Origin: Gemmatimonadota bacterium
GTDB taxonomy: Bacteria; Gemmatimonadota; Gemmatimonadetes; Gemmatimonadales; GWC2-71-9
NCBI GenBank assembly: GCA_039586365.1
Contig: JBDHKN010000087.1
Coordinates: 1 to 20,257, forward strand
Length of the DNA: 20,257 bases
Direction of reading: 5' to 3'
In this document: positions 565 through 19,668 of the stretch, piece after piece
How the letters are laid out: every line of letters starts with the position of its first letter
How positions within the stretch are numbered: the stretch's first letter is position 1
Translations under genes and position numbers: made by a program
Notes under the pieces: generated by a model
Databases searched by the model: none
Told to the model about the DNA's origin: nothing
What the model saw: only the letters and a program-made list of their open reading frames with translations

Positions 565-725
565 GCCCAACAAGCGTTTGCAGCTGGCGCTGCAGGCTTT
601 CTAGCTACGGACTTTGGCCCTGCCGCGCGGAGGGCTCCTTGTAGAAGGTGGGTACATGCTGGTTGACTTTGCTCCGTTGCCCTCCGCGCTTCTCAGGGCG
701 CAGCTGAAGCGCAAGGTCGTTAGGC
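565..725 (+). repeat. attC site, ~160-bp family (161 bp)
   Basis: GCCCAAC-aagcgtttgcagctggcgc ... gcgcagctgaagcgc-aaggtc-GTTAGGC. Confidence 0.93.
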
Positions 726-920
726 GGCACTCATTCTCGGTCCGGAGGTCTATAGGTCACAGGTAGGGGATTCAGCCACCACCGCGGAATCGCAGGCCTG
801 CCTCATTCTTGTCACGACAACTGAGGTGTGGGAGGTGTGGACGTTCTAGTATGGAGGCTGACTGGCAAACCGCTTAGTCCTGGCAAAGGTGAGAACTCTG
901 GCAACGGTCAGGCGGCTCTG

Positions 921-1344
921 ATGTTGAAGCGGATGTTGTTCACTGCCGCACTGCTCGCGTCGGGCGCCGCCGCATGCGACAGCGCGACAGCCCCCGCCAC
1001 GAGTTTGGTGCTCTCGAGAGCCCCTGACTTCGTCGCGGTCGTTATCCAGACTACGTACGAGAGCTTCTTCGCTCCCTCGGGGTTCTCCCTCGGGGTTCTG
1101 GGTCGAGCAGTACAAGGTCTGGGTTGCTATTCCGCCGTCCACGACCGCGAATGCTGGGGTGGTTGTCGGCGTGTCGAGGCCTGTATTCGTCAGCAACGAC
1201 GGCGTCCTAGCCCGTGCCACTGCGGATTCCATCAGTGTCGGCGATTCGATTCAAGTCTGGCACACCGGCTCGGTTGGCTACGGGGCGGAAGAGGCGCCTG
1301 ATTCACCGTGCTACATCGCCACCCAGGTCTTGATAGTTCGGTAG
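921..1344 (+). pseudogene. Lipoprotein (possibly DUF3221/YobA-like) frameshifted by a 13-bp tandem duplication
   Basis: Lipobox in MLKRMLFTAALLASGAAAC. CTCCCTCGGGGTT occurs twice (1072-1097). Removing one copy joins ORF 921 to the 1159-1344 frame, giving 136 aa ending ISVGDSIQVWHTGSV...ATQVLIVR. Confidence 0.8.
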
Positions 1345-1359
1345 CTCGCACGGGGCGCC

Positions 1360-1518
1360 GCCTAACAAGCGCTTGCAGCTGGCGCTGCTGCCTTTCGGGC
1401 AGCCGCCTTTTTTCCGTGACGGGGCGAGTTCACTATTGATGGTTACATTGCGGTTTGGCCTCTGCTCCGTGGACCCGCGCGGTCCTCAGGGCGCAGCTGA
1501 AGCGCAGAGTCGTTAGAC
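1360..1518 (+). repeat. attC site, ~160-bp family (159 bp)
   Basis: GCCTAAC-aagcgcttgcagctggcgc ... gcgcagctgaagcgc-agagtc-GTTAGAC. Confidence 0.95.
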
Positions 1519-1535
1519 CGCACCAAGGCGGGAAC

Positions 1536-2744
1536 GTGCTGTCTGTAGGATCTAGCAGACTCGGAATTCGGTGTTGTGCAGCGCTTAGCGCGATGCCGGT
1601 GCTTATGATCGCTGTTGGTCTGTCGGGTTGTCAGAGTGAGCGGCAACCGGCCCGTGACGTGGTGGTGGGCAGACCTCTGTGGACTCCGCAGACCGCTTGG
1701 ACAGTGCGCGCTGAGCCAACTCTAGTTCTTGGAACGCCGAATTCCGTGCCCGAAGCTCAGTTCCACGATGTTCGCGGTGCCATTGCCCTTTCCGACGGTC
1801 GTATTGTCGTCGCTGAAGCTTCTGCGGATCAACTCGTGGTTTTTGGCTCAGACGGCCGGGTTATCAGGACGATCGGTCGCAGTGGTCGTGGCCCAGGTGA
1901 GCTTCGCGACCCGAACGATCTCTTTCTGCTGCCAGGTGACACGATTGCAGTCAGAGATCTCTCCACATCTAGGATTACCTTGTTCACTCCTGACGGTAGT
2001 GTGGTCGACACGTGGCGCATTGATGGGCCACCACGGAGTATCGCGGGAGTCTTACGCGGTCATCGACTGGTTGCATTTGCCGATTTTCCAGGCCTCGGCA
2101 TGGGCTTGGTTCAAGCTCGCCCTTTCTCTGTCTTGGTACTGGACTTCAGTGGGGAAGAACTCGCTACGGTTGGCCCGTTTGAAGGGAGGAAGGGCTACAA
2201 CGTTGACCGTGGTAATCTGCATATCGGCATCGATTACATCTTCGACTACCGCACACATGTGGCGGCTGGCTGGGATTTCTTCGTTGTAGGAGACAGCGGG
2301 TCTGATTCTGTGATCGTCTACGACCTCAATGGGGAGCCTGCTCTTGTTATCCAGTTGCCTTTGGAGGGACGTCTTGTCCAGAGGGAGGATGTGGAAGCTT
2401 ATCTAGATAGGCACGCGCCTGCGAGCGAGAATCGCATGGACAAGGCCTGGCGGCAGGCACACCTCGAAATGATCGAGAAAGTCTCGATTCCGGAGAGACT
2501 CCCAAGGTTTGCCGATCTCCGAATTGATCCAGACGGCAACCTATGGATTCAAGGCTATCCGGAACCCGAGGCGAGAACTGACAATTGGTACGTGTTCGAC
2601 ATCCATGGTCTTTGGCTGGGGGTCGTGTCTGTCCCCGGCGGGCTCAAGCGTGTGCTGTACATCGGGCGGTCTTGCCTCCTGGGTCTAGCCCAGGGCGAGT
2701 ACGATATTCCGCTGGTGCAGGTGTACCAGCTCTTGAAACCATAG
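1536..2744 (+). CDS. 6-bladed beta-propeller (NHL-like) lipoprotein
   Basis: Lipobox LSGC. Propeller motifs LSDGRIVVAE, TIGRSGRGPGEL, DLRIDPDGNLWI. Start uncertain (GTG 1536 or ATG 1593); the ORF-track start at 1455 lies inside attC. Confidence 0.8.
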   Translation: MLSVGSSRLGIRCCAALSAMPVLMIAVGLSGCQSERQPARDVVVGRPLWTPQTAWTVRAEPTLVLGTPNSVPEAQFHDVRGAIALSDGRIVVAEASADQLVVFGSDGRVIRTIGRSGRGPGELRDPNDLFLLPGDTIAVRDLSTSRITLFTPDGSVVDTWRIDGPPRSIAGVLRGHRLVAFADFPGLGMGLVQARPFSVLVLDFSGEELATVGPFEGRKGYNVDRGNLHIGIDYIFDYRTHVAAGWDFFVVGDSGSDSVIVYDLNGEPALVIQLPLEGRLVQREDVEAYLDRHAPASENRMDKAWRQAHLEMIEKVSIPERLPRFADLRIDPDGNLWIQGYPEPEARTDNWYVFDIHGLWLGVVSVPGGLKRVLYIGRSCLLGLAQGEYDIPLVQVYQLLKP

Positions 2745-2770
2745 AGGCGGCGGGCTTATTGCTAGGTGCG

Positions 2771-2930
2771 GTCTAACAAGCGCTTGCAGCTGGCGCTGCA
2801 GTCTATCGAGGAACGGCCTCTGATCTGTGATAAGGTGAGTTCATCGCAGTTGGTGACATCGCGCCTTGGCCTCTGCTCCGTGGACCCCCGCGTTCCTGCG
2901 GGGCGCAGCTGAAGCGCAGAGTCGTTAGGC
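2771..2930 (+). repeat. attC site, ~160-bp family (160 bp)
   Basis: GTCTAAC ... gcgcagctgaagcgcagagtc-GTTAGGC. Confidence 0.95.
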
Positions 2931-3000
2931 GGCAGCTCCGGATTGGCCCTATGACTGACAGGTGGCCTCAGAAGGCTGTTGCTCTGCTGGAGGTGAAGCG

Positions 3001-3591: not shown

Positions 3592-3608
3592 CGATTCATC
3601 TGGCTGCC

Positions 3609-3748
3609 GCCTAACAAGCGTTTGCACCTGACGCGGGCGCCGCTCGCGGCGGTGGCCTTGGATTGTCATCGGTCGTGTTCGGCGGCCCGGCCGCTTCCCC
3701 GATCGGGCGTGGTCGTAGCCGCGCAGGTGAAACGCAAATCCGTTCGGC
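3609..3748 (+). repeat. attC site, ~140-bp family (140 bp)
   Basis: GCCTAAC-aagcgtttgcacctgacgcgg ... ccgcgcaggtgaaacgc-aaatcc-GTTCGGC. Confidence 0.93.
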
Positions 3749-3819
3749 GGGCGACGGGAGGTGGACGCTAGCTCCAGTAGTGATAGCACGCCCGACCGTA
3801 GGAAGGGAGGCGACGGGCC

Positions 3820-4362: not shown

Positions 4363-4383
4363 AACCCGGGGGTCGGAAGCGCC

Positions 4384-4467
4384 GCCGAACAACCGGTTGG
4401 AGCTGACGAAGCACGGTTGTAGCCCCGAGCGGCCCCGGAACTTCGCAGCTCAACCGGGGTGTTAGGC
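4384..4467 (+). repeat. attC site, short outlier type (84 bp)
   Basis: GCCGAAC-aaccggttggagctgacgaag ... cttcgcagctcaaccgg-ggt-GTTAGGC. Arms pair with two bulged bases. Confidence 0.9.
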
Positions 4468-4473
4468 GGCGCT

Positions 4474-4691
4474 ATGCCGGATTGGTACACGCAACAGTTC
4501 TCCCTGAAAGGGAAGAGTGGCGACGCTAAGCGGTCAGCCTTCATAAAGACCTGGCGTTGTTGATCATCGTGGATGCTGTAATCGTGGTGGGTGTCAATGT
4601 CCTGCTTGGGGAATCTTTGATCCTTGCGGTCATCTGTGCGGCGGTCTTTAACGTGATCGATCTGTTTGGGCTGGCAGCGGAGGTCATGTAG
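4474..4691 (+). other. Small cassette with no long ORF: a 29-aa ORF (4474-4563) overlapping a 46-codon hydrophobic frame (4551-4691)
   Basis: Read by hand: MPDWYTQQFSLKGKSGDAKRSAFIKTWRC* and LALLIIVDAVIVVGVNVLLGESLILAVICAAVFNVIDLFGLAAEVM*. Confidence 0.4.
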
Positions 4692-4732
4692 GCTGGCTTC
4701 GCAAGGCGCCAGTGTCCGAAATGGTTAGCGCC

Positions 4733-4873
4733 GCCTAACAAGCATTTGGACCTGACGCGGGCGCCGCTCGGAGTGATGTCCTTATATTGTTCTTCTCTCG
4801 TGTTCAGTGGTAATGCCGCGCCCGCAGGCAGGCGCGGTCGTTGCCGCGCAGGTCAAATGCATATCCGTTAGAC
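4733..4873 (+). repeat. attC site, ~140-bp family (141 bp)
   Basis: GCCTAAC-aagcatttggacctgac ... gcaggtcaaatgc-atatcc-GTTAGAC, with compensatory changes in both arms. Confidence 0.93.
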
Positions 4874-4979
4874 GGACACAGCGGGGTCACTTTGCAGCGA
4901 GCCGATCATCGGACTGGGTAATGTCCCGGTCGATTAACACCTCGATGAGCTGATAATCCGCAGTCAAAGGAAACGCGGG

Positions 4980-5372
4980 ATGAGACGAAAGCTCTTTCTC
5001 GTCTGCGGTATCTTGGCATCCCTGCTCTATGTCGCTACTGACATGCTCGCAGCTATACTATGGGAAGGCTACAGCTACACTGCCCAAACCATCAGTGAGA
5101 CCTTTGCTATCGGTGCTCCGACGAGACCACTCGTCGTTCTGCGTGGCCTTGGGTATTCTGTCCTTGTGATCGCATTCGGATTGGGCGTCTGGGGATCGGC
5201 CAGTGGAAAGCGTCCGCTGCGCGTTGCAGGCGGACTGTTGGTCGGAATCGCCGTCGTCGACTTGATGGCGCCATTTGTTGCCCCGATGCATCTTCGTGGC
5301 GCCGAGCGGACGCTAGCCGATACGATGCATATAGTCCTGGCGCTGTGGGGAACGGCCTTTGATGTCTGGTGA
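4980..5372 (+). pseudogene. DUF998-like membrane protein, 3'-truncated and fused into an attC remnant
   Basis: GYSYTAQTISE...H pattern typical of DUF998 proteins. Sequence switches to attC-family sequence at CTGGCG (5337), and the last residues (LWGTAFDVW) are read from attC. Confidence 0.75.
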
Positions 5373-5469
5373 GGTCAGTTCATTGCAGTTAGGTGAGGTC
5401 GCCCTTCGGCTTTTGCTCCGTGGACACCGGCGTTCCTCAGGGCGTAGCTGAAGCGCGAAGTCGTTAGGC
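5337..5469 (+). repeat. Truncated attC (~160-bp family) lacking R'' and most of L''
   Basis: ctggcgctg...ggaacggcct...ttcattgcagtt...ctccgtggac...gcgtagctgaagcgcgaagtc-GTTAGGC, with no upstream RYYYAAC. Confidence 0.88.
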
Positions 5470-5482
5470 ATCAGGTACTGCA

Positions 5483-5512
5483 TCGTGCTAGATTTGCTTA
5501 GGACTAGCACGA
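5483..5512 (+). promoter_or_regulatory. Inverted repeat overlapping a candidate extended -10 of the hicBA cassette (putative autoregulatory operator)
   Basis: TCGTGCTAG-N12-CTAGCACGA. TGcTAGATT at 5486-5494. GAGGA RBS follows. Confidence 0.5.
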
Positions 5513-5522
5513 GGATGGTCAT

Positions 5523-5744
5523 ATGAAGCTTACCGCCCTATTCCGTAAGGTCCCTGAGGGCTACATCGGATTTGTAGAAGAACTCGCGGGTGCCAACACC
5601 CAAGGAAAGACGCTAGAGGAGGCCAGGGAGAACCTGCGTGAAGCCGTCGAGCTTGTTCTCCAGGCTAACCGTAGCCTTGCCCACGAGTCCGTCGGCGAGG
5701 AGGGCGGCTTCATCCGCGAACCCTTCGAGGTCTCGAGCGATTGA
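5523..5744 (+). CDS. hicB: HicB family antitoxin (short form, no obvious DNA-binding domain)
   Basis: GYIGFVEELAGANTQGKTLEEARENLREAVEL is a HicB partial RNase H-fold signature. Confidence 0.9.
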   Translation: MKLTALFRKVPEGYIGFVEELAGANTQGKTLEEARENLREAVELVLQANRSLAHESVGEEGGFIREPFEVSSD

Positions 5745-5922
5745 AGCGCCGCGATCTCGTCCGCCATTTGGAGTCCCACGGGTGCAAGCTGTATAGAGAA
5801 GGCCGCACACTCTTTACATCAACCCTAGGGCGCGAAAGGTCGCTACCGTCCCACGGCATCGGAAGATCAACGAGTATCTCGCTCGCAAGATCTGCCGTGA
5901 CTTGCAGGTAGCTGAGCCCTGA
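5741..5922 (+). pseudogene. hicA: HicA family toxin, frameshifted at ~5804
   Basis: TTG overlaps the hicB stop. First frame reads MKRRDLVRHLESHGCKLYREG; shifted frame reads HTLYINPRARKVATVPRHRKINEYLARKICRDLQVAEP*. The 182-nt span is not a multiple of 3. Confidence 0.85.
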
Positions 5923-5923
5923 T

Positions 5924-6083
5924 GCCTAACAAGCGCTTGCAGCTGGCGCTGCTGGGTATTGGGGAACGGCCTCTGATCTGTGCTAGGGTGAGTACATTGC
6001 AGGTGGTGACATCGCGCTTCGGCAGCTGCTCCGTGGCCCCCCATGCTGCTGCGGGGCGCAGTTGAAGCGCAGAGTCGTTATGC
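5924..6083 (+). repeat. attC site, ~160-bp family (160 bp)
   Basis: GCCTAAC ... gcgcagttgaagcgcagagtc-GTTATGC. Confidence 0.94.
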
Positions 6084-6141
6084 GGCACTTCGACACACAT
6101 AGGATCCGGACCTGTTATCTCGCGCGCGAGAGGGGGACGAT

Positions 6142-6645
6142 ATGACGCATATACAGAGGCATCCGGTTCGGAGGGTACTGCTTCTTGGATGGATACCGAT
6201 CATTATCTTGGCGGCCTGCACTGGATCAGCGGACTCACAAAGAGCGGCGAACATCGAAACGGTCACACTGCTCCACACTGAGGTGTGGAGTGAAGGCCGC
6301 GTGGAACTAATCCCAACGCTATACGCTGACGGGTATGTTGGTGACTTTCCAGGTGGAACAACCTTGAATGGCCGCGACGGCATACAAGCGGAAGTCGAGA
6401 ACGTTCGTTCTGCATTTCCTGATTGGACAGAGACCGTGGAGCAGATTGTTGCTGACGGGGATTGGATCGTCACCCTATATCGGTCAACAGGCACGCATTC
6501 CGGGGAGTTTCTTGGTAACCCAGCGACTGGGAATGTTGTGGGGATTCTCGAGGCATCCGTGTTTCGAATGGTCGATGGGAAGATTGCTGAGCAGTGGGCA
6601 TTCCCAGACGTTCTGAGTCTTCAGACCCAGACGGCTTCTAAGTGA
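6142..6645 (+). CDS. SnoaL-like ester cyclase family lipoprotein
   Basis: Lipobox LAAC. RSAFPDW, GTHSGEFLGNPATG, DGKIAEQW motifs. Confidence 0.88.
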   Translation: MTHIQRHPVRRVLLLGWIPIIILAACTGSADSQRAANIETVTLLHTEVWSEGRVELIPTLYADGYVGDFPGGTTLNGRDGIQAEVENVRSAFPDWTETVEQIVADGDWIVTLYRSTGTHSGEFLGNPATGNVVGILEASVFRMVDGKIAEQWAFPDVLSLQTQTASK

Positions 6646-6683
6646 TGCTGAGCGTCCGCGAACGCACGACCGCACTGGGTGCC

Positions 6684-6823
6684 GCATAACAAGCGTTTGC
6701 ACCTGACGCGGGTACCATTCGTGGTGTTTGCCTTTGATTGTCTCTTGTCGTGTTAAGTAACCTGGCCGCGCCCGTCTGTGAGCGTGGTCGTTGCCGCGCA
6801 GGTGAAACGCTAATCCGTTAGAC
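6684..6823 (+). repeat. attC site, ~140-bp family (140 bp)
   Basis: GCATAAC ... gcgcaggtgaaacgctaatcc-GTTAGAC. Confidence 0.94.
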
Positions 6824-6877
6824 GGCAGCAGATACGCGGATCTCAAGCTGGTGTAGGCGCCTGGAAGGAGGTAGCAC

Positions 6878-7354
6878 ATGTTGAGCACTCGCTGCTCTGT
6901 CGCGGCGATCGTCCTAATGGCGATTGCCGGTTGTAGTTCTCAGCGTGACAGCGATTCATCCGCGGCCGACATCGCGGCCGTTCAGCAGTTGGTGACGGAT
7001 ATCGACGCTGCTGGCGACCTGGACAGTTTCTTGTCTTTCTTCGCGGAGGATCTCGTTGACATGCCACCGAACGAACCGGCGATCATCGGCAAGCAGGCCC
7101 TACGAGCACACCACGAGCCGCTGTATGAAGCGTTCAACGTCCGTATCACACGTGAGCCAGTCGAGACGCATGCGTTCGGCGATGTGGTGATACAGCGGGG
7201 TGCCGGTGTCGCTGAGCTCGCTCCCAAGGCGGGAGGGGACCCAGTGATCTTGGATCAGAAGTACCTGTTCGTCTTCCGCCGGCAAGAGGACGGTTCCTTC
7301 AAGCTCTGGCGGGCGATCTTCAACGATAACGCACCGCTCGCGGCGTCTCAGTGA
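6878..7354 (+). CDS. NTF2-like (DUF4440/SnoaL) lipoprotein
   Basis: AGGAGGT RBS, lipobox IAGC. AGDLDSFLSFFAED, MPPNEPAIIGK, KYLFVFRRQEDGSFKL motifs. Confidence 0.85.
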   Translation: MLSTRCSVAAIVLMAIAGCSSQRDSDSSAADIAAVQQLVTDIDAAGDLDSFLSFFAEDLVDMPPNEPAIIGKQALRAHHEPLYEAFNVRITREPVETHAFGDVVIQRGAGVAELAPKAGGDPVILDQKYLFVFRRQEDGSFKLWRAIFNDNAPLAASQ

Positions 7355-7378
7355 CTCGCGTGCAACAAGCAGGCTGCC

Positions 7379-7519
7379 GTCTAACCAGCGTTTGCACCTG
7401 ACGCGGGCACGGTATGGGGAGGTGGCCTTAGATTTGTCGTTAGTCGTGATTGACGGTCCGGCCGCTCCCTCAATCGGGCGCGGTCGTAGCCGCGCAGGTG
7501 AAACGCTATTCCGTTAGGC
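7379..7519 (+). repeat. attC site, ~140-bp family (141 bp)
   Basis: GTCTAAC ... gcgcaggtgaaacgctattcc-GTTAGGC. Confidence 0.94.
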
Positions 7520-7551
7520 GGCAGCCACACGCATTGAAGAACACAGGTAGG

Positions 7552-8169
7552 ATGAAAGGATCGAGTTTTGGACCGCTGGATGCGGACTCTGACGCCCAGC
7601 TGCTGACGGCGTATCGGTACCTCCTTGAGGCTTTTCCAAGACTCGGGCGGGCCCCCACTCTACGTGAGATGAAGAACGAACTCGATCTCAGCGAGGATTC
7701 CATTGGTGAGATCTTGGGAAGGCTTGAAGCTTGTGGTGCCTTGCGACTTGATCCGCGCACGTCCTGGATCGCCGACGCTTATCCGTATTCACCAACTCCT
7801 ACGAGCCATTTGGTGAGCTTCGATACGGGTGTTCGAGCATACTGCATGTGTGCAATTGATTGCTTTTACGTCCCATTCCTTACGGGGTCTAATATTTCTA
7901 TTGAGTCAAGATGCCATCTGTGCCGAACCGGCATACACGTGCGTATTGAGCGGGGGAAGATATTGATGGTGGTGCCGGTGACGACGGTTGTCTGGGACAG
8001 TGAAGCTTTGTATGACTGTCCAAAGACAAACTTCTTCTGCAGCGAAGGCCACCTACTGGAGTGGAGAACCTCTGCACCTGATGAGGCAGGGAGGATTCGC
8101 TCACTCGACGCAGCGCTCGAAAGAGGGCGTGAGGCCGCAACCCGAATAAGGCAGGTAATTGGCGGTTAG
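7552..8169 (+). CDS. merB: MerB-like alkylmercury lyase family protein
   Basis: N-terminal winged-helix-like segment, then AYPYSPTPT, YCMCAID (matches the MerB WCALD Cys/Asp motif), IESRC, and CPKTNFFCS. Confidence 0.75.
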   Translation: MKGSSFGPLDADSDAQLLTAYRYLLEAFPRLGRAPTLREMKNELDLSEDSIGEILGRLEACGALRLDPRTSWIADAYPYSPTPTSHLVSFDTGVRAYCMCAIDCFYVPFLTGSNISIESRCHLCRTGIHVRIERGKILMVVPVTTVVWDSEALYDCPKTNFFCSEGHLLEWRTSAPDEAGRIRSLDAALERGREAATRIRQVIGG

Positions 8170-8216
8170 TCATCTTCTGCCCAGTTCGTGTGAGGCAACT
8201 GAGCATCCTCGCTGCC

Positions 8217-8376
8217 GCCTAACAAGCGCTTGCAGCTGGCGCTGCAGCCTTTCCGGGAACGGCCTCTGAACTTCAGTCAGGTGAGTTCATTGCACTTAGT
8301 GACATCGCGCTTCGGTCTCTGCTCCGTGGACCCACGTGCTCCAGCGGGGCGCAGGTGAAACGCGGAGTCGTTAGGC
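8217..8376 (+). repeat. attC site, ~160-bp family (160 bp) with a 140-family-like L' box
   Basis: GCCTAAC-aagcgcttgcagctgg ... gcgcaggtgaaacgc-ggagtc-GTTAGGC. Confidence 0.92.
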
Positions 8377-8399
8377 CGACTGCTGCCGGAGGACTTAGT

Positions 8400-8816
8400 G
8401 TGAACGTTAAGACACCTAAGAGGATTGCGACTGTCGGCGGAGCGCTTCTCTCCATCAGTGGTCTGGTGAATGCCGTGCTCGGGGCACGGATAGGAGTACT
8501 AGTCTACGACGCGTATCCCGGCGGAAGAATGGGTGATGTGGGCGTCATTGCCGGCGTTGCCGGGATAGTCATCGGCATTGTTATTGTCTTCCTTGTCGTT
8601 CCTCTCTTCGAACGCCGTAACCGGGCGCTTCTAGCGCTTGGCGGCGTTCTCACGATTGTATTAGGGCACGCTGGCGCAATCGCCGGCGCAATCTACGTTG
8701 GGACGCTGGGGGTGATTCTCTGCTACATAGCAGGCGTTTGGATGCTGGTTATCGCCGCGAGGGGAGTCAACACTCGAAACTGGCGATCCCACTCTGGCGG
8801 GTCAGCAGCGGCCTAA
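8400..8816 (+). CDS. Hypothetical Gly-rich membrane protein (~4 TM)
   Basis: GGAGGA RBS before GTG 8400. Stop TAA lies inside R'' (GCC-TAA-C). Confidence 0.75.
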   Translation: MNVKTPKRIATVGGALLSISGLVNAVLGARIGVLVYDAYPGGRMGDVGVIAGVAGIVIGIVIVFLVVPLFERRNRALLALGGVLTIVLGHAGAIAGAIYVGTLGVILCYIAGVWMLVIAARGVNTRNWRSHSGGSAAA

Positions 8817-8950
8817 CAAGCGTTTGCACCTGTCGCGGGCGCCATGTGGGGCTGTGGCCCTAGATTGTCATTAGTCATGTTCAGCTGTCCAGCCGCTTCC
8901 TCAATCGGGCGCGGTCGTTGCCGCGCAGGTGAAACGTATATCCGTTAGGC
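8811..8950 (+). repeat. attC site, ~140-bp family (140 bp)
   Basis: GCCTAAC ... gcgcaggtgaaacgtatatcc-GTTAGGC. Confidence 0.94.
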
Positions 8951-8973
8951 GTCACCCGCGCAGAAGGTCTCAC

Positions 8974-9483
8974 ATGGTGAAGATCGACCAACAAGGTGGA
9001 GTGCTAGGCACGTGGCAAACCAGCAGTCGCGTGACGGCATTTCTAATCGAAAACCTTCCAGATGAGGTATGGTGCTCGACCATTCCGGGGGCGCCGAGGC
9101 GAACGGTGCAGATGATCGGGGGGCACCTCCACAACTGCCGCTGCATGTGGGTCAAGATGCTCGGCAAGAGACACGGTCTAGCCGTCCCGCGGGGTGTGGG
9201 CCGGTACGGGGTGTCGCGGCGCCAGCTTTTGGCAGCACTGGGTCGGAGTGCTCGCGCCATCGCTGGGCTATTGGAAGTCGGTCTCGCGAACGGCGGACAC
9301 CTCGCTGGATTCTCGCCACCGGAGGTCACACACTTCCTGGCCTACCATGTAGCACACGAGGGTCACCACCGCGGGCAGATTGTGATGGTGGCTCGACAGC
9401 TCGGCCACCGACTGCCGGCGGAGGTCACGAACGGCTTGTGGCAATGGTCGAAGCGCGGCCGCGAGGCGAGGGGTGACGCCTAA
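8974..9483 (+). CDS. DinB/YfiT-like four-helix metal-binding family protein
   Basis: His triad: GGHLHN and HEGHHRGQI. Stop lies inside R''. Confidence 0.88.
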   Translation: MVKIDQQGGVLGTWQTSSRVTAFLIENLPDEVWCSTIPGAPRRTVQMIGGHLHNCRCMWVKMLGKRHGLAVPRGVGRYGVSRRQLLAALGRSARAIAGLLEVGLANGGHLAGFSPPEVTHFLAYHVAHEGHHRGQIVMVARQLGHRLPAEVTNGLWQWSKRGREARGDA

Positions 9484-9617
9484 CCAGCGTTTGCACCTGA
9501 CGCGGGCGCTATCGATGACGAGTCTTTAGATTGTCATTAGGCCGCGTTCGGCGGTCGGGCCGCTCCCGTGGACGGGCGCGGTCGTTGCCGCGCAGGTGAA
9601 ACGCATATCCGTTAGGC
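9478..9617 (+). repeat. attC site, ~140-bp family (140 bp)
   Basis: GCCTAAC ... gcgcaggtgaaacgcatatcc-GTTAGGC. Confidence 0.94.
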
Positions 9618-9690
9618 ATCGCTCAGGCCACCCGCACACAGTCTGGACGAGCACGTCTTCTGGGACTGCGGACTGGAGCCAAATGGAGGA

Positions 9691-10182
9691 TCAGCCCCCG
9701 CCTCCGAGCAGTTCCCGCGCCTCATCCTCGGTAAGCCCGGCCTCGCCCACGTCCGCGCTGGCGTCGAGCAATTCCCGGTCCTCCGCCATTCTGGCTAGGG
9801 CCAGCGAACCAGCAGCGGAGCCCGCACCCGCCAGTGCGAACACAGGTCCCAAGACCAGAAGGGCCTCCCCAAGGCCCTCCCCTCCAAGGGCCGCCGCCAA
9901 GACAAAGATCCCGGACAGCAGAAGACCCCCAATGCCTCCCCACACTGCAAAGCGCGGAAGCGACATCTGGTCAAACCTGCGCCGGCGCTCAACAATCCCG
10001 AGGACCCCAGAGAACATGACGCCGGCAAGAAAGCCGAGCAGAGCAAAGAAAAGGGGAAACGGGACGTCGGCGGCGCCAAAACCGACTACGAGCAGGAGGA
10101 TTAGGCCCGCGCCGAACCATGCTATTGCCCAGGTCAGACCCATGGCGATTGCGCCGCGGATGCGTCGCAGCCACGTCTTCAT
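9691..10182 (-). CDS. Hypothetical 4-TM membrane protein, inverted within its cassette
   Basis: GGAGGTGG RBS before ATG 10182. MKTWLRRIRGAIAMGLTWAIAW followed by hydrophobic helices. Confidence 0.85.
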   Translation of the reverse strand: MKTWLRRIRGAIAMGLTWAIAWFGAGLILLLVVGFGAADVPFPLFFALLGFLAGVMFSGVLGIVERRRRFDQMSLPRFAVWGGIGGLLLSGIFVLAAALGGEGLGEALLVLGPVFALAGAGSAAGSLALARMAEDRELLDASADVGEAGLTEDEARELLGGGG

Positions 10183-10255
10183 TGCCACCTCCCTGTGCAC
10201 TTGAACCTACTAGCCGACGCTGGTTCCCATGCAGCTTTACAGCACTTTGTTTCGC

Positions 10256-10283
10256 AAGGTAGCGCCAGAGAAGAGGGCGTCAA
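10256..10283 (-). promoter_or_regulatory. Candidate sigma70 promoter of the inverted gene
   Basis: Minus strand TTGACG-N16-TACCTT, about 75 nt upstream of the ATG. Confidence 0.5.
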
Positions 10284-10359
10284 CAGAGCGGACCGACTCA
10301 GTCCCCACGATACCCTAGGTGCCGGGCCGAGAGTGCGTCTCTCCCGTCGCGGCGGCGAT

Positions 10360-10499
10360 GCCTAACAAGCGTTTGCACCTGGCGCGGGCGCCGTACGGTG
10401 CGATGGCCTTAGATTGTAAATGGTTGTGTGCCGTGGCCCGGCCGCTTCCTCAATCGGGAGCGGTCGTAGCCGCGCAGGTGAAACGCATATCCGTTAGGA
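10360..10499 (+). repeat. attC site, ~140-bp family (140 bp)
   Basis: GCCTAAC ... gcgcaggtgaaacgcatatcc-GTTAGGA. Confidence 0.93.
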
Positions 10500-10540
10500 A
10501 GCAAGAGCGAGGATTGGGCGGTTGTCTCCAGGGGGTTCCT

Positions 10541-11548: not shown

Positions 11549-11581
11549 GCAACCTCATGGCCACTATGGCTGCGGCTCGCT

Positions 11582-11647
11582 TCCTAACGGGGCGTTGCAC
11601 CTGACAGCGCGCATTGCGCGCCGCAGGTGAACGCCAGCACGTTAGGC
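11582..11647 (+). repeat. attC site, short type (66 bp)
   Basis: TCCTAAC-ggggcgttgcacctgac-agcgcgcattgcgcgc-cgcaggtgaacgcc-agcac-GTTAGGC. Confidence 0.9.
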
Positions 11648-11687
11648 CGCGTGGCGCGCGCTGTGCAACAAGCGTGGAGGTAAACCG

Positions 11688-12371
11688 ATGACAGTCTGGG
11701 TATTTCCTGCACTTGTTATGTTTGGCTTGGCGGCACAGACCCCCAGTTCTCAGACAACCGAGCCCGTCATCGTCACGAGCGCGACTGGTGAAGTAACGAT
11801 CAGCCCGGATAAGGCTGTTGTTTGGATCGGGGTTGAAACTACTGAGTCACTGGCCGCGAAGGCAGCGCGCGAGACTGCGTCCAAGCTCCGTGCGCTCGTC
11901 GACACACTCGTGGCCCTGGGATTCTCACGTGATTCTCTTCCTACGACTGGATACTCGGTGGGTCCCGAGTGGCGAGATGGAGAGGGAGAACGCTGCTACC
12001 AAGCAAGGGCAACGATCCGGTTGGATGTGTCAGACTTGGAACGGATTCCGGAGATCCTCGATGCCGCTCTGGCAGCTGGAGCCAACAACATCCCTTACAT
12101 CCAACTTGAGGCGGAAGATACGGAAACTGCTCGGCAAACGGCTATCAGTCAGGCTGTGGACAAAGCTCGCAAGGATGCGGAAGCGTTGGCCCGTGCGGCT
12201 GGCGGCCGCTTGGGTCACTTACTGGAGTTGTCCATGAAGCCAGAGTATGGCTATGCGTTCGAAATGGCTACGGCGGAGATAGCGCCATTTTCCTCCATGC
12301 CGTTCACTCCTCAGAACGTGACAGTTACGGCGAGGGTTACGGCAAAATGGCAGTATCTAGAGCCTGGATGA
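11688..12371 (+). CDS. SIMPL (DUF541) domain secreted protein
   Basis: GGAGGT RBS, signal peptide. TGEVTISPDKAVVWIGVET, LDAALAAGAN, AVDKARKDAEALARAAG motifs. Confidence 0.9.
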   Translation: MTVWVFPALVMFGLAAQTPSSQTTEPVIVTSATGEVTISPDKAVVWIGVETTESLAAKAARETASKLRALVDTLVALGFSRDSLPTTGYSVGPEWRDGEGERCYQARATIRLDVSDLERIPEILDAALAAGANNIPYIQLEAEDTETARQTAISQAVDKARKDAEALARAAGGRLGHLLELSMKPEYGYAFEMATAEIAPFSSMPFTPQNVTVTARVTAKWQYLEPG

Positions 12372-12393
12372 TAGGGTCACCGTGGTCCACGCG

Positions 12394-12534
12394 GCCTAAC
12401 AAGCGTTTGCACCTGACGCGGGCACCGTACGGGGTTCTGGGCTTAGATTGTCGTTCACTCGTGTTCAGTGGTCCGGTCGCTTCCGCAATCGAGCGCGGTC
12501 GGTGCCGCGCAGGTGAAACGCTAATCCGTTAGGC
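12394..12534 (+). repeat. attC site, ~140-bp family (141 bp)
   Basis: GCCTAAC ... gcgcaggtgaaacgctaatcc-GTTAGGC. Confidence 0.94.
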
Positions 12535-12572
12535 GGACTGAGGCTGCAGAAATCATCTATATCGGAGCTGTC

Positions 12573-13097
12573 ATGAAAGCCAGGTACCTCGCACCGTCAG
12601 CTATAGCATTGGCGGTTAGTTTGCTTGTCGCGTCTGTGGGTAGTAGCCAAGAACTCGATGAGCATCTGCTTTTGCTTGAACCACTAACAGGTGTCACGTG
12701 GGTCGGGCATTTCGTGGAGTCGCCGGACTCCGGACTTATCCACGTAGTTCGCTGGGAGCCCGTATTGAACGGAGCCGTCATCAGGTCAACCAAGGAAGTG
12801 ACAACTCTGAACTTCAGAATGGAGACCCTATATTTCTGGGACTGGGAAAAGGAGGAAATCTCATTCCTTCAGCTTACTAGCAGAGGATTCTTTAGCAGGG
12901 GCACTGTTGCGATTGTCGAAGACAAGATGACGCTGTCTGGGAGGAGTATACGACCCAATAGCGTAGTCGAGTTCAAACAGACGTTTGAGATCCGACCGGA
13001 TAGGACACTTCACGACTACTTCTATCACAGAGCTGACGGTGAGTGGAAGCTGGGACATCGGATCGTCTATACTAGGCAGGAATGTTCCAATAGATAG
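12573..13097 (+). CDS. Hypothetical secreted beta-rich protein
   Basis: GGAG RBS, signal peptide. LEPLTGVTWVG start resembles lipocalin/DUF1579-like barrels. Confidence 0.7.
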   Translation: MKARYLAPSAIALAVSLLVASVGSSQELDEHLLLLEPLTGVTWVGHFVESPDSGLIHVVRWEPVLNGAVIRSTKEVTTLNFRMETLYFWDWEKEEISFLQLTSRGFFSRGTVAIVEDKMTLSGRSIRPNSVVEFKQTFEIRPDRTLHDYFYHRADGEWKLGHRIVYTRQECSNR

Positions 13098-13103
13098 CGA
13101 GCC

Positions 13104-13265
13104 GCCTAACAAGCGTTTGCAGCTGGCGCTGCGTGCTTCGCATAGACAGCCTTTGTTCCGTAGTGATTGTGGATTCCGTGGTCGTGGTGACGATTAGCTG
13201 ATTGCCATTGTTCGCAGCTGCGCCGCTCGTTCCTCACGGCACAGATGAAACGCTGACCGTTAGAC
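13104..13265 (+). repeat. attC site, 162-bp subfamily
   Basis: GCCTAAC-aagcgtttgcagctgg ... cgctcgttcctcacggcacagatgaaacgctgacc-GTTAGAC. Confidence 0.9.
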
Positions 13266-13291
13266 AGCACCAGAAGTTGTAGAGGTGGTGC

Positions 13292-14038: not shown

Positions 14039-14055
14039 CCACTTGCCGCTGTGCT

Positions 14056-14193
14056 GTCTAACAGGCGCTTGCTGCTGGCGGGCGCGTGGACTGGCGGAGT
14101 GATCGCGCGCGTAGCAGGTTCCGTGAGGATGTCATTGACACACGTTGCTGCTGGTGCGACTGCGCCCGCAGCAGAAGCGCAGGGTCGTTAGGC
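14056..14193 (+). repeat. attC site, divergent type (138 bp)
   Basis: GTCTAAC-aggcgcttgctgctggcgggcgc ... gcgcccgcagcagaagcgc-agggtc-GTTAGGC. Confidence 0.92.
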
Positions 14194-14219
14194 GGCGTCT
14201 CAAGGAAAGGAAGCGACTC

Positions 14220-14699: not shown

Positions 14700-14708
14700 T
14701 ACGACGCC

Positions 14709-14868
14709 GCCTAACAAGCGCTTGCAGCTGGCGCTGCGACCTGTCGTGCAACGGCATTTGTTCCGTCGTGAGGTGGGTTCGTTGCAGTTGGTGACATCGC
14801 GCTTCGGCCTCTGCTCCGTGGCCCCCCGCGCTCCTCAGGGGCGCAGCTGAAGCGCAGAGTCGTTGGGC
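14709..14868 (+). repeat. attC site, ~160-bp family (160 bp)
   Basis: GCCTAAC ... gcgcagctgaagcgcagagtc-GTTGGGC. Confidence 0.95.
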
Positions 14869-14902
14869 CGCGTAACCCTCAACAGAAGGGAGCAGTGGAT
14901 TG

Positions 14903-15871: not shown

Positions 15872-15886
15872 ACTGGCCTCAACGCG

Positions 15887-15952
15887 GTCCAACAAGGCGA
15901 TGCACCTGACGGTCCGCTCCGCGGCCCGCAGGTGATCGCCGATCTGTTAGGC
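15887..15952 (+). repeat. attC site, short type (66 bp)
   Basis: GTCCAAC-aaggcgatgcacctgacgg ... ccgcaggtgatcgcc-gatct-GTTAGGC. Confidence 0.9.
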
Positions 15953-16085
15953 CGCTCTCATAGCTGGAGGTCCTCGGCTGGCTGCGCGCTCGAATTCCGA
16001 AGGTCTTCCATCAGGCTACGGGCCATCGCAGGTGAACGGCGTGTGTCATATATCGACCGCAGTACCTAACGTGTTGGAGGTAGGC

Positions 16086-16886
16086 ATGCATGAACGGAAT
16101 GGCACCGTGTTTTCCATTCTCCTGAAGAATCGGAGAATGAGGTATTGTCTGGGGCTGCTCGGCGTGCTTCTGTGGCCCCCCTTGTCTTCGGTGGCATACT
16201 TAGAAGCGCAGGAATTGACTGGTCTCCGTGGAGATCCTGCCGCCATCGCGGACGCTGAGAAGATGGTCGAAGCGATGGGCGGTCTGGCTATCTGGCGTGA
16301 GCTTGAGGGCGTTCACTTTGTTCACGAGTGGGACATCTTCGACCGTCCTGACATCTACCTGGAAAACGAGATTCTGGATCTCACTGGGCCACGCTCGTAC
16401 GTCACGATGGAGAGCGAGATATACAACAGAGTTCGAGCGTATAGCCCTGAGTATGGATACTGGAATGTAGTCAACGGGGAGTTCTCGTATGCCAGCGATC
16501 AGGCATACGCGAATGCCATGGAGCGGGCTCCATATAGTATTTACCGACTAGCCAGAGCCATTGCCCGGGGCGATAGCTTTTATTCTGTCCAGTTCGGTCC
16601 AATGAGGGGTATGCCCGGCACAACCGCCCTTGAGTTTCGCGGTCCAGACGGCGAAATCCACGGCTGGATCCTGCTCAACACCAGAAAGGAGCCGGTGGTG
16701 TGGGCGACGACCCAGTACAGCTATAGCTTTGGCCCGCTACAGCGGTTCGGGAATCTCCGTGTCCCGAGGTGGGCGATGACTGGGGGCGGCCGGGTTCGTT
16801 ACGAGATGGTGTCACTGACCGGAAGTAGTGAGCGCCCCGATCTTTCGCTCTTTGCCCCGCCGCCTGAATTTCGCGGGGAATTCTAG
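16086..16886 (+). CDS. Hypothetical secreted protein (allele 1 of a repeated cassette)
   Basis: GGAGGT RBS then ATG 16086. Hydrophobic signal ending LEA-Q. Mostly synonymous divergence from allele 2 supports this frame. Confidence 0.85.
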   Translation: MHERNGTVFSILLKNRRMRYCLGLLGVLLWPPLSSVAYLEAQELTGLRGDPAAIADAEKMVEAMGGLAIWRELEGVHFVHEWDIFDRPDIYLENEILDLTGPRSYVTMESEIYNRVRAYSPEYGYWNVVNGEFSYASDQAYANAMERAPYSIYRLARAIARGDSFYSVQFGPMRGMPGTTALEFRGPDGEIHGWILLNTRKEPVVWATTQYSYSFGPLQRFGNLRVPRWAMTGGGRVRYEMVSLTGSSERPDLSLFAPPPEFRGEF

Positions 16887-16908
16887 CTGAAGCGCATATC
16901 TGCTAGCT
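16885..16908 (+). repeat. attC right-arm remnant (L'-spacer-mutated R')
   Basis: AGCTGAAGCGCATATCT-GCTAGCT aligns without gaps to AGGTGAAACGCATATCC-GTTAGGC. Confidence 0.7.
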
Positions 16909-17009
16909 GGCCAGTCATCTTGAGTAGAAGCCGCATCGCCGATGTTTGCAGTGTGAGTTTTCGCGTTGCTAGGTTTCTCGTTCATGGCTGCTCAGAACGA
17001 GGTGCAACA

Positions 17010-17960
17010 GTGAGATCGATACTATCGAGCAGACGGTTCGGATTCGTCTTTGTGGCTCTCCTACTGGGGCTTGGTCCGGCCGTGGTTGCACAAGAGGTGA
17101 CAGACGCCGGGTCCAAAGGGATCGAGATAGCCGACGGCGTGCATCTCCTTGCTGGGCTGGCGTGCAATGTCATCGCCGTGATTGCTCCCGACGGTGTCTT
17201 GATCATCGACAACGGGAGGGCCAGCGGTTCTGAGGACCTGGAGAAATCGATCACCGAACTCGACGCGGGTCCGGTCCGGATCGTCCTAGACACGCATTTT
17301 CACTTCGACCACATTGGCGCAAACGAGGCCCTCGCTAGAGATGGGGCAGTCATCGTCGCGCACGAGAACGTAAGGCGGCGCATGCTGGCCGAATGGCGTG
17401 TTCCAGATACTCTAGGCATTAGTTACCCCACCGTCGCGCCGTACCCAGAGGTAGCTCTTCCGATACTAACGATCACTGACTCCCTCACTGTACATTTTGG
17501 CGGACACGAAATCGAAGTCCGATATCTTCCGAGCGCCCACTCGGATGCGGATGTCGCGGTGTTCTTGCGTGACGCGAATATCCTTCACACCGGAGACCTC
17601 TACCTCTCGAACGGCTTCCCCATCATCGATTCTTATCATGGTGGGACGATAGATGGGCTGATCGCCGCGGTCGACGCCTTGATAGACCTCATCGACGACG
17701 ACACGAAGGTCGTTCCGGGGCACGGTCCGGTGTCGAACCGGCGGGAGTTGCGCGAGTATCGGCACATGCTTGCGGCGGGTCGCGACCGGATCACAGCCCT
17801 TATCGACGAAGGTAAGACCCTAGAGGAGGTTGTAGCGGCGGATCCGACAGCTGGCCTCTATAGGCGTGGGGAGTCCTGGCTTCCTCCCAAGCTCTTCGTC
17901 TGGATGGTCTACGTGGACCTCACCCGGTCTCGTTCTCCAGCAGAAGATACGAGTGGCTGA
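17010..17960 (+). CDS. Secreted MBL-fold metallo-hydrolase (cyclase/glyoxalase II-like)
   Basis: THFHFDHIG (HxHxDH), AHSDAD, TGDL, VPGHG. GAGGT RBS before GTG 17010. Signal ends VVA-Q. Confidence 0.9.
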   Translation: MRSILSSRRFGFVFVALLLGLGPAVVAQEVTDAGSKGIEIADGVHLLAGLACNVIAVIAPDGVLIIDNGRASGSEDLEKSITELDAGPVRIVLDTHFHFDHIGANEALARDGAVIVAHENVRRRMLAEWRVPDTLGISYPTVAPYPEVALPILTITDSLTVHFGGHEIEVRYLPSAHSDADVAVFLRDANILHTGDLYLSNGFPIIDSYHGGTIDGLIAAVDALIDLIDDDTKVVPGHGPVSNRRELREYRHMLAAGRDRITALIDEGKTLEEVVAADPTAGLYRRGESWLPPKLFVWMVYVDLTRSRSPAEDTSG

Positions 17961-17985
17961 CTTACCGCCCCCTCATTCTCCGGCC

Positions 17986-18125
17986 AGTGAACAAGCGTTT
18001 GCAGAAGGCGCGCGCGTCGCTCTGGGCGTTGGCCTTAGATTGCGATTGGCTGAGTTCTGCGGCTCGGCCAGCGCCTCAATCGGGCGCGGTCGTTGCCGCG
18101 CAGGTGAAACGCTGATCCGTTAGGC
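17986..18125 (+). repeat. Degenerate attC, ~140-bp family (R'' and L'' mutated)
   Basis: AGTGAAC-aagcgtttgcagaagg ... gcgcaggtgaaacgctgatcc-GTTAGGC. Confidence 0.85.
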
Positions 18126-18172
18126 GGCCGTGGCGAAGTTCCAGGCTGACGAGTAATAGCTGTGAGGTGCTA

Positions 18173-18766
18173 ATGAGATCAGCCCACAGGCACCTTTGTC
18201 GAGCGGTTCGAGTGTCTCTGATCGCATTTTTCGGCTGTGCGGGAAGCTCTACAGCTCCGTCGGCCGGAGAGATCTCACAGTTAGTTCTCTTTCACATCTC
18301 CTATGAGAACTTTGCCTGGGGCCATCAGAGCGCTGGCTCGTATATAGATAATCACGGCCGCGTCTGGCGGCTCAGCACCGCGCTTCATTGGTGGCCGGAG
18401 GTAATGAACATACTGCAGGGTAGCGAGGATACTCTTTATTACTCCGTTGCGGAATTGGAGCAAAGTTACGCAGATGCCAGAGACTCGCTTGTTGCTGTTA
18501 TCGACGCTGGCGAGCTACGAGAGAAGTATCTGTTGATTGCTGGGGCCGCGCGGGGCACCTATTCGCCACCAGTTAACGCCGGTGCGGACATGGGGTCCCT
18601 CGTCGTTGGTTGTCTGGCCTATGATCAAGAAGTCGAGAGATACCGAAAGGTGATTCTTAGCATGACTGGAGATTGGGAGGCGATGAATGTCGCCAGCTCT
18701 GCGACTGAATTGGACGCCTGGCTGAGAAGCCTTGCGCAGCAGTTCCTTCTGGGGACGGACGGCTGA
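18173..18766 (+). CDS. Hypothetical lipoprotein
   Basis: Lipobox-like AFFGC. YENFAWG and GADMG motifs. Fills the cassette. Confidence 0.75.
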   Translation: MRSAHRHLCRAVRVSLIAFFGCAGSSTAPSAGEISQLVLFHISYENFAWGHQSAGSYIDNHGRVWRLSTALHWWPEVMNILQGSEDTLYYSVAELEQSYADARDSLVAVIDAGELREKYLLIAGAARGTYSPPVNAGADMGSLVVGCLAYDQEVERYRKVILSMTGDWEAMNVASSATELDAWLRSLAQQFLLGTDG

Positions 18767-18780
18767 GGTGTTGAGCGGCC

Positions 18781-18942
18781 GCCTAACAAGCGTTTGCAGG
18801 TGGCGCTGCATACTTCGCGTTCATTGCCTTTGTTCGGTGGTCGATGCGGTGTTAGAGGGCAAGCTGACTACGAGCTGATGTCCTCTGTTCCAGCCGTGCC
18901 GCTCGTTCCTCACGGCGCAGCTGAAACGCTGATCCGTTAGGC
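18781..18942 (+). repeat. attC site, 162-bp subfamily
   Basis: GCCTAAC ... cgctcgttcctcacggcgcagctgaaacgctgatcc-GTTAGGC. Shares internal sequence with 13104-13265. Confidence 0.92.
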
Positions 18943-18958
18943 ATACACGCGCGCGGCC

Positions 18959-18987
18959 TTGCGAGTCCGTCCGGGATGACCAAGATT
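18959..18987 (+). promoter_or_regulatory. Candidate promoter of the TA cassette, possibly leaderless
   Basis: TTGCGA-N17-AAGATT, with 6 nt between the -10 and ATG 18994 and no SD. Confidence 0.4.
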
Positions 18988-18993
18988 TTGGGT

Positions 18994-19215
18994 ATGGCCA
19001 AGCGTGCGATTGACTACGAGAAGCTCAGCATCGCGGAGCGGCTTCAACTCGTGGAGGATATCTGGGATAGTATCGCCGACGAGACCGAGGCGCTTCCTTT
19101 GACTGATGCGCAGAAGGCGGAACTCGACCGCCGTCTTGAGCAACATCGTCGCGATCCAGATTCCGCCATACCCTGGGAACAGGTTCGGGAAGAACTAAGT
19201 AAGCCTGGCGGATGA
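18994..19215 (+). CDS. Addiction module antitoxin (TIGR02574-like)
   Basis: LSIAERLQLVEDIWDSI...QKAELDRRL...IPWEQV signature. Confidence 0.9.
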   Translation: MAKRAIDYEKLSIAERLQLVEDIWDSIADETEALPLTDAQKAELDRRLEQHRRDPDSAIPWEQVREELSKPGG

Positions 19216-19508
19216 CGCTCCGCTTGGTCTTCCATCCAGCGGCTCGAGCCGAGCTGCGGGAAGCTCAGGGGTGGTACGAAGCCCGGGTTCCGGGTCTCGG
19301 CCTTGAGTTTGCGCGTGCAGTCGAGGCTGCGCTGATGGCCATCCAACGCAGCCCGGCAGCGTATCCGGTTGTCTATGAGGAAGTCAGGCAGGCCGTGCTG
19401 CGCCGGTTCCCCTACTCTCTCCTCTTCATTCCGGAAGCCGACAGCATTCTGGTGGTCGCGTGCTTCCACCACAGGCGCGATCCGCGGACCTGGCAAGAGC
19501 GCGCGTGA
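19212..19508 (+). CDS. RelE/ParE family type II toxin
   Basis: FHPAARAELREAQGWYE...GLGLEF...RRFPY...HHRRDP. ATGA overlap with the antitoxin stop. Confidence 0.92.
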   Translation: MTLRLVFHPAARAELREAQGWYEARVPGLGLEFARAVEAALMAIQRSPAAYPVVYEEVRQAVLRRFPYSLLFIPEADSILVVACFHHRRDPRTWQERA

Positions 19509-19509
19509 T

Positions 19510-19668
19510 GCCTAACAAGCGCTTGCAGCTGGCGCTGCAGCCTTTCGTGGAACGGCCTTTGGTCTGTGATAAGGTGAGTTCATTGCAGTTAGTGACATCG
19601 CGCTTTGGCCTTCGCCACGTGGACCCCCGCGCTCCTCAGGGCGCAGCTGAAGCGCAAAGTCGTTAGGC
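19510..19668 (+). repeat. attC site, ~160-bp family (159 bp)
   Basis: GCCTAAC ... gcgcagctgaagcgcaaagtc-GTTAGGC. Confidence 0.95.

Follow-up and report, generated by a model that had tools for sequence, protein, structure and literature searches.

Own-end pairing of cassettes in a Gemmatimonadota integron array: a probable outer arm of the attC hairpin, with a recurrent one-base bulge in related arrays

Contig JBDHKN010000087.1 of the Gemmatimonadota bacterium assembly GCA_039586365.1 (20,257 nucleotides, analysed whole and here called the window) holds one integron cassette array, and our subject is the complementarity between the two ends of each of its cassettes. Crossover sites number 23 in this array (565..19668, forward strand), the first at 719 and the last at 19662, and the array runs off the contig on both sides: the contig starts inside a short-chain dehydrogenase frame, which ends just before the first attC recombination site, and stops inside a second copy of the cassette at 15946. 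Sites were recognized by R'' and R' repeats (55–170 bp) between single-gene units. Both boxes, R'' (RYYYAAC) and R' (GTTRRRY), are present in 22 sites and R'' is missing from one; several cores deviate at one position. The L'' and L' boxes pair around an unpaired fourth base, with a second extrahelical base 6 bp further out. The spacer between L' and R' measures 9 nt in 14, 8 nt in two and 6 nt in one of the 17 detected window sites, and most therefore lie outside the 5–6 nt of Nivina 2016, which is a usual value and not an absolute rule. In the lineage, our term for array stretches from relatives of the source genome, the spacer is also 8–9 nt at most sites; the three extra bases can pair with the opposite spacer to give a 2 x 6 loop, for example in attC 3609–3748 and 2771–2930. 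At 336 of 391 lineage sites the bottom strand has C as the first extrahelical base of the L arm. An Rfam scan of the window returned 0 matches.

The boundaries of at least some cassettes can be seen in use. Contigs from two other sediment studies lack the blocks 4867–7512 and 11641–13258, with joints lying exactly at the crossover, between the G and the TT of the core; the joints share only 8 and 6 letters, and these boundaries thus behave as real recombination sites. Among the matches listed, which are assembled contigs only, there was no clear joint of a circular cassette. A pattern search of the source genome outside the array contig found no attC-like arms.

Given the position of the crossover, the bases 3' of it belong to the cassette's own 5' end. 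The original prediction held that each such end is the reverse complement of the 3' end of the same cassette for 9–14 bp. We took the exact run between the two as the measure and scored 21 of the 22 intervals between crossover sites, leaving out the cassette 4867..5462, whose R''/L'' arm is lost. Its short DUF998 frame runs into the attC interior, and a deletion appears to have removed both that arm and the end of the gene. Own ends are complementary for 9–14 bp in 19 of the 21 scored intervals, and the prediction therefore stands for most cassettes but fails as a statement about each of them, the exceptions being this unscored interval, a mismatched end at 14862 and a fused interval at 15946–18118.

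All eight end pairs cited in its support are exact, and all of the following 5' ends lie on the forward strand. The beta-propeller cassette (1512..1524) pairs over 13 bp with 2765–2777, and the cassette at 4461..4474 over 14 bp with 4726–4739. The HicB-like/HicA-like cassette (5463..5475) pairs over 13 bp with 5918–5930; the predicted inclusion of a hicA stop is borne out in that TGA 5920–5922 lies inside the pairing, but the frame is only HicA-like (weak Pfam matches, E 0.035 and 0.0015) and is frameshifted near 5804 in this assembly. The SnoaL cassette (6077..6088) pairs over 12 bp with 6679–6690, and the DinB cassette (8944..8957) over 14 bp with 9471–9484, which are the last three codons and stop of DinB (G-D-A-stop), as predicted. 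The SIMPL cassette (11641..11654) pairs over 14 bp with 12387–12400, and the dienelactone hydrolase cassette (13259..13270) over 12 bp with 14051–14062. Finally, the antitoxin–ParE cassette (18936..18954) pairs over 9 bp, an extra A at 18945 and 9 bp more with 19499–19516, covering the last codons of ParE and its stop at positions 9–11.

The remaining ends behave alike. Pairing extends over 10 bp at 719..728 (cassette 719–1511, with 1357–1366), 13 bp at 2924..2936 (with 3603–3615), 13 bp in the SnoaL_2/DUF4440 cassette (6817..6829, with 7373–7385), 13 bp in the MerB-like cassette (7513..7525, with 8211–8223), 10 bp in the Rce1-like cassette (10493..10502, with 11579–11588), 13 bp in the RidA-like cassette (14187..14199, with 14703–14715) and 12 bp at 18119..18130 (with 18776–18787). 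The cassette at 9611..9622, whose gene is probably inverted (9691–10200, minus strand), pairs over 12 bp with 10355–10366, outside that frame. The SurE cassette (14862..14873) pairs at 11 of 12 positions with 15882–15893, with a core mismatch at position 6 (5 bp, mismatch, 6 bp). The other three ends, at 3742, 8370 and 12528, are interrupted by an extra base and are described below.

Several side observations concern these cassettes. Interval 15946–18118 consists of two cassettes fused through loss of the attC left arm, a fusion also found in contigs of two other studies; the remnant attC right arm (16885..16914), with a decayed core at 16902, pairs at positions 6–11 and 13 with 17980–17992. 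The first of the two cassettes recurs at the contig end (19662–20257, 91–98% identical), and the second carries a gene of the metallo-beta-lactamase fold (Pfam Lactamase_B), whose activity is predicted at most. A MerB-like gene of the alkylmercury lyase family (7552–8169) is also cassette cargo. The first cassette gene (921–1344) and the HicA-like gene (5741–5922) are frameshifted in this assembly, and length differences from the contigs of other runs, at 5804, 1072 and 7005, reflect strain variants or assembly errors.

Exact runs between own ends average 11.05 bp (median 12, mode 13), against 5.10 bp when the same R'' is paired with the neighbour's R', which is the attC as it stands in the array, and 5.78 bp for non-self pairs. 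The claim that the match is to the same cassette and not to its neighbour thus holds on average; six of 19 cassettes nevertheless have a non-self partner equal to or better than their own exact run, because the consensus is shared, and the 3' end of cassette 3742 pairs with the 5' end of its neighbour, 4461, at 12 of 13 positions; the attC between them is canonical and, at 84 bp, short. These two cassettes are also adjacent in contigs of other runs and may have travelled together. The proposal that a shared GC-rich consensus alone produces the self-match would account for the 43 of 420 non-self comparisons that reach 10–15 bp and for position 10, which is equally conserved in self and non-self pairs. 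It has next to no probability: when the end pairings were shuffled, 100,000 permutations gave 6.03 +/- 0.38 bp (maximum 8.48) and none reached the observed mean. Positions 8 and 11–13 are cassette-specific, with self/non-self match frequencies of 0.95/0.37 at position 8, 0.67/0.30 at 11, 0.76/0.29 at 12 and 0.52/0.30 at 13, and this specificity ends after position 13, since position 14 onward is background (0.19/0.25).

A wider survey covered 613 non-redundant cassettes in 65 array stretches (390 lineage, 118 Vibrio, 45 Xanthomonas, 11 from one Pseudomonas-like genome, 34 others and 15 from the window), some of which share one array or genome and are hence not independent. Detection used a stand-alone detector (8 Vibrio cassettes only) followed by a seeded second pass, recovering 15 of the 21 window intervals; before counting, we set aside intervals that exceeded 2 kb or contained an orphan arm or a further attC, together with duplicates and any stretch of fewer than three sites. 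The final set contains no class 1 cassettes; the few seen outside it pair over 12 bp and over 8, 8 and 6 bp. Own-end pairing was found in every group surveyed. In stretches with at least three cassettes, self and non-self runs were 9.77 versus 5.70 bp in the lineage (386 cassettes), 9.89 versus 4.72 in Vibrio (112), 8.38 versus 5.74 in Xanthomonas (40) and 9.53 versus 6.21 in others (30). Pairing is near-perfect at positions 4–9 in most cassettes, and typical length varies by array (mode 11 in L073, 13 in the window, which stands at the long end together with L052 and L215). Stem length rises weakly with spacer length, from 11.05 bp at 6 nt to 12.62 bp at 9 nt; the correlation (rho 0.50, p 0.01), taken over 25 non-independent stretches, is a weak lead.

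The match is cassette-specific, sharply bounded and general across taxa. Own-end pairing itself is already described biology: Bouvier 2009 (PMC2727003), citing Rowe-Magnus 2003 and Sundstrom 1991, gives 9–11 nt of self-pairing for most cassettes. The novelty that had been attributed to the extension beyond the 7-bp core is thereby lost, as it is both documented and common in Vibrio, Xanthomonas and other arrays, an outcome that the original prediction had itself named as refuting it.

What the pairing may do follows from how the site is used. The integrase IntI recombines the folded bottom strand, which it cuts within the AAC of R' while its monomers occupy the R and L arms (PMC5027507). The two matching ends (about 9–14 bases) would form the outer R arm of the cassette's own attC hairpin. 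The crossover would split this arm, leaving in the array a hybrid site with a weaker arm of about 5–6 bp exact, whereas the excised circle would hold the full R arm, long enough for one integrase monomer; the arms of tyrosine recombinases measure 11–13 bp. As had been proposed, the stem is predicted to be longer mainly in the circle. In folding predictions for the bottom strand the circular form was more stable than the array form in 19 of 20 window cassettes (-42.8 versus -35.3 kcal/mol), and the R box was paired in 94% of circles versus 75% of array sites in the lineage and in 91% versus 31% in Vibrio. This predicted lengthening fits a bias to integration over excision, which would arise because the arm is complete only in the circle, and selection at re-integration would then keep the arm paired after the birth of the cassette.

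The original prediction had also offered a footprint of cassette genesis, in which at birth the 5' end was templated from the gene's 3' end, or the reverse, with only decay thereafter. Such an origin would suit the pairing that covers stop and last codons in the DinB, ParE and HicA-like cassettes, its reach of 18 bp in the ParE cassette and the differences in typical length between arrays, and PMC5371416 states that cassette genesis is unresolved. The length of the stem is, however, independent of coding overlap (10.68 bp in the 151 cassettes that use the TAA of R'' as gene stop, versus 10.52 bp in the 183 whose gene ends upstream of it). Among the 151 overlapping proteins, the C-terminal residue pair is AA in 35, AV in 19, GA in 11, AT in 11 and AS in 10, so that overlapping tails look like read-through into attC sequence, and cassette 9611, with its inverted gene, still has 12 bp. 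Homologous cassettes also speak of upkeep: compensated changes at both ends occur in 14 of 35 clusters, beyond position 7 in 11 of them (two from a misaligned member, leaving about nine clean), and include adjacent changes at positions 7–9 in a Vibrio cluster and 5–8 in a lineage pair. As full-length homologues at 73–86% identity differ by such changes, pairing appears to be maintained after birth and to be more than a one-off mark. We therefore regard a genesis footprint as quite unlikely.

The arm is not always continuous. In four window cassettes pairing breaks at position 10 and resumes after one extra base in the 5' end: the antitoxin–ParE cassette described above, 3742..3753 (one extra G within the run 3749–3751; 9+2 bp with 4380–4390), 8370..8385 (extra A at 8379; 9+6 bp with 8803–8817) and 12528..12539 (extra A at 12537; 9+2 bp with 13100–13110). 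There is no gap against contigs of runs X1, X2, X5 and X6 at 3742 or of runs X5 and X6 at 8370, and identical contigs exist for 12528 in run X2 and for 18936 in run X1, which is possibly the source sample. The extra A of the toxin–antitoxin cassette had been noticed in the original prediction, its recurrence and fixed position had not.

This bulge, one extra base of the 5' end after exactly 9 bp, occurs in 79 of 401 lineage cassettes, about one-fifth. Of 390 lineage runs, 102 end after exactly 9 bp; 75% of these resume for at least 2 bp once one 5' base is skipped, whereas skipping a 3' base instead restores pairing in 12% and allowing a substitution in 6%. With the window included, 79 of 104 such runs, spread over 17 of 33 stretches, resume for at least 2 bp after the 5' skip (null mean 29, maximum 44) and 43 for at least 3 bp (null 9.4, maximum 19), where the null is 2,000 draws of tails from the same stretch. 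In an unconditioned indel scan of lineage and window, position 10 was hit on the 5' side in 59 of 405 cassettes and on the 3' side in three; the corresponding 5' counts were 1 of 118 in Vibrio (four on the 3' side), 0 of 45 in Xanthomonas and 2 of 45 in others. The extra base is A in 74, G in 13, C in 7 and T in 7 of 101 cases, its neighbours vary, and A corresponds to T on the bottom, recombining strand. Since base and neighbours vary and three clear pairs of homologues differ by gain or loss of the bulge, it is the position that is fixed and not the sequence.

Two other irregularities near this position were seen. In Vibrio (L174–L177), 38 of 118 runs also stop at 9 bp but do not resume; a T/G mismatch recurs at position 10 (28 cases each), and one paralogous cassette family supplies part of these runs. 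In L206 and L207, from one genome, otherwise identical cassettes differ by one extra base at position 9 of the 5' end, which is a recent indel or a sequencing error.

These observations bear on a further explanation, that template switching or mismatch repair rewrites one arm of the folded circle to match the other, while selection on pairing plays little part. Such templated correction would leave adjacent compensated changes, as in the Vibrio cluster and lineage pair above, and the near-perfect pairing of positions 4–9. Copying would, however, erase the position-10 bulge, which persists with varied base and context across so many stretches; it does not explain the sharp stop of pairing at about 11–14 bp, and one-sided changes persist. 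We consider templated correction an unlikely sole cause, although it can coexist with selection.

In its placement the position-10 bulge matches an extrahelical base: it is one base without a partner, it always occupies the same point of the stem, and its strand runs 5'–3' into the spacer. The outer extrahelical base of the L arm, mostly a top-strand A, likewise follows 9 bp; this holds for 266 of 391 sites in the lineage, 103 of 115 in Vibrio and 31 of 39 in Xanthomonas. Because the extra bases of both arms lie on the bottom-strand segment that runs 5'–3' into the central spacer, they are two-fold mirror images; this relation takes the L box to begin 5 nt beyond R'', and with so long a spacer the dyad is less certain. 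Judged from these positions, the position-10 base is likely the mirror image of the L-arm extrahelical T, in place as well as in strand and base. It would then flip into the same cis pocket of the R-bound IntI monomer, a step whose chances we regard as evenly balanced, and binding in the pocket would explain why indels are tolerated at position 10 only and may tune cleavage. More tentatively, and with considerable doubt on our part, this would be a third kind of extrahelical base, docking in the cis pocket of the cleaving monomer and acting as a one-base gain/loss switch that sets the recombination rate of each cassette and exists only when its own ends meet.

Relatives carry a full IntI (274.6 bits to PDB 2a3v), and that of a same-genus relative has its best plasmid match in Gemmatirosa (60%). 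In a relative, IntI retains the HH motif seen in the 2a3v integrase, which we take to have a role in binding the L-arm extrahelical T. It has R at the position where Demarre 2007 (PMC2095811) aligns IntI1 R168 with W157. Two correlates of the bulge were considered. Toxin–antitoxin genes were not enriched among bulged cassettes when the last long frame per cassette was compared (7 of all 97 bulged versus 7 of 150 of the 196 unbulged from the same stretches, p=0.41). The idea that the bulge compensates for a missing L-arm base was rejected, as bulged and unbulged sites have similar L arms. No description of an R-arm extrahelical base was found in a literature search that included the available parts of PMC5027507, PMC5371416, PMC3053210, PMC8352920, PMC2727003, PMC7439510, PMC8618304, PMC2095811 and PMC12614218, and an earlier mention is possible. 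The bulge is thus apparently new; its recurrence is statistically solid and its function putative.

Overall, we think it probable that the matching ends are the outer R arm of the cassette's own attC hairpin, complete only in the excised circle and kept paired by selection at re-integration, and that the position-10 base of the lineage mirrors the L-arm T. Several points weigh against this reading. No integron integrase above the family cut-off, and no neighbouring pair of intI and attI, was found in the source assembly (86% complete). At positions 8–12 of homologues, 38 compensated changes stand against 86 changes at the 5' end only and 38 at the 3' end only (122 non-independent pairs), and low-identity homologues could be independent captures. 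An excess of bottom-strand G–T wobbles at positions 11–16, considered as a sign of selection on own pairing, was discarded as compositional, being present in non-self pairs and reversed in Vibrio. In Bouvier 2009 (PMC2727003), cis binding of the L-arm T disorganizes the active site of that monomer; a bound R-arm T would therefore be expected to hinder integration, which sits uneasily with the frequency of the bulge. As to the integrase, it may have escaped assembly, because the array takes up the whole contig with both of its ends open, other parts of the genome are missing too and IntI is found in 127 of 301 genomes of the phylum; it is also present in 21 of 41 related genomes and, among the matches listed, in two of seven genomes of the same genus.

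The sites of the window share with known attC sites (59-base elements) the AAC...GTT boundaries, the order R''-L''-L'-R', a pair of extrahelical bases on the L arm with 6 bp between them, of which the outer follows 9 bp, and cassette-specific pairing past the 7-bp core. They differ in that pairing is mostly 12–14 bp instead of 9–11 nt, the L'-R' spacer is 8–9 nt in most sites instead of 5–6 nt, and the first extrahelical base, usually G, is C in the lineage; moreover, known extrahelical bases lie only on the R''-L'' arm near L'', whereas four window cassettes have the additional position-10 base on the R arm. The sedentary chromosomal integrons of Vibrio and Xanthomonas resemble the array in homogeneous attC families, toxin–antitoxin cassettes and own-end pairing of about 8–12 bp, but are without a recurrent position-10 bulge. 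In these and in class 1 integrons the array lies upstream of, and divergent from, intI, whereas in the lineage relatives examined (L022 1–11230; L073 20001–40903; L036) it lies downstream on the same strand. As with CALIN elements (clusters of attC without a neighbouring integrase), no IntI above the cut-off was found in the source genome, but the array, unlike such a cluster, runs to both ends of its contig in an incomplete assembly. The window array is thus a lineage variant of attC, with a 12–14 bp arm, an 8–9 nt spacer and C as first extrahelical base, in which a bulge recurs at the mirror position.

For the study of integrons, these results mean that a cassette's two ends must be joined before the complete recombining site can be read, and that folding attC in its array form misses the own-end arm. 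The compensated changes move the question from the matching of the ends at birth to their later maintenance. Present models place all extrahelical bases on the L arm and invoke this asymmetry to account for cutting by a single IntI monomer. A frequent mirror base on the cutting arm would offer a direct, one-base test of that model and could reveal a control of mobility that is set cassette by cassette.

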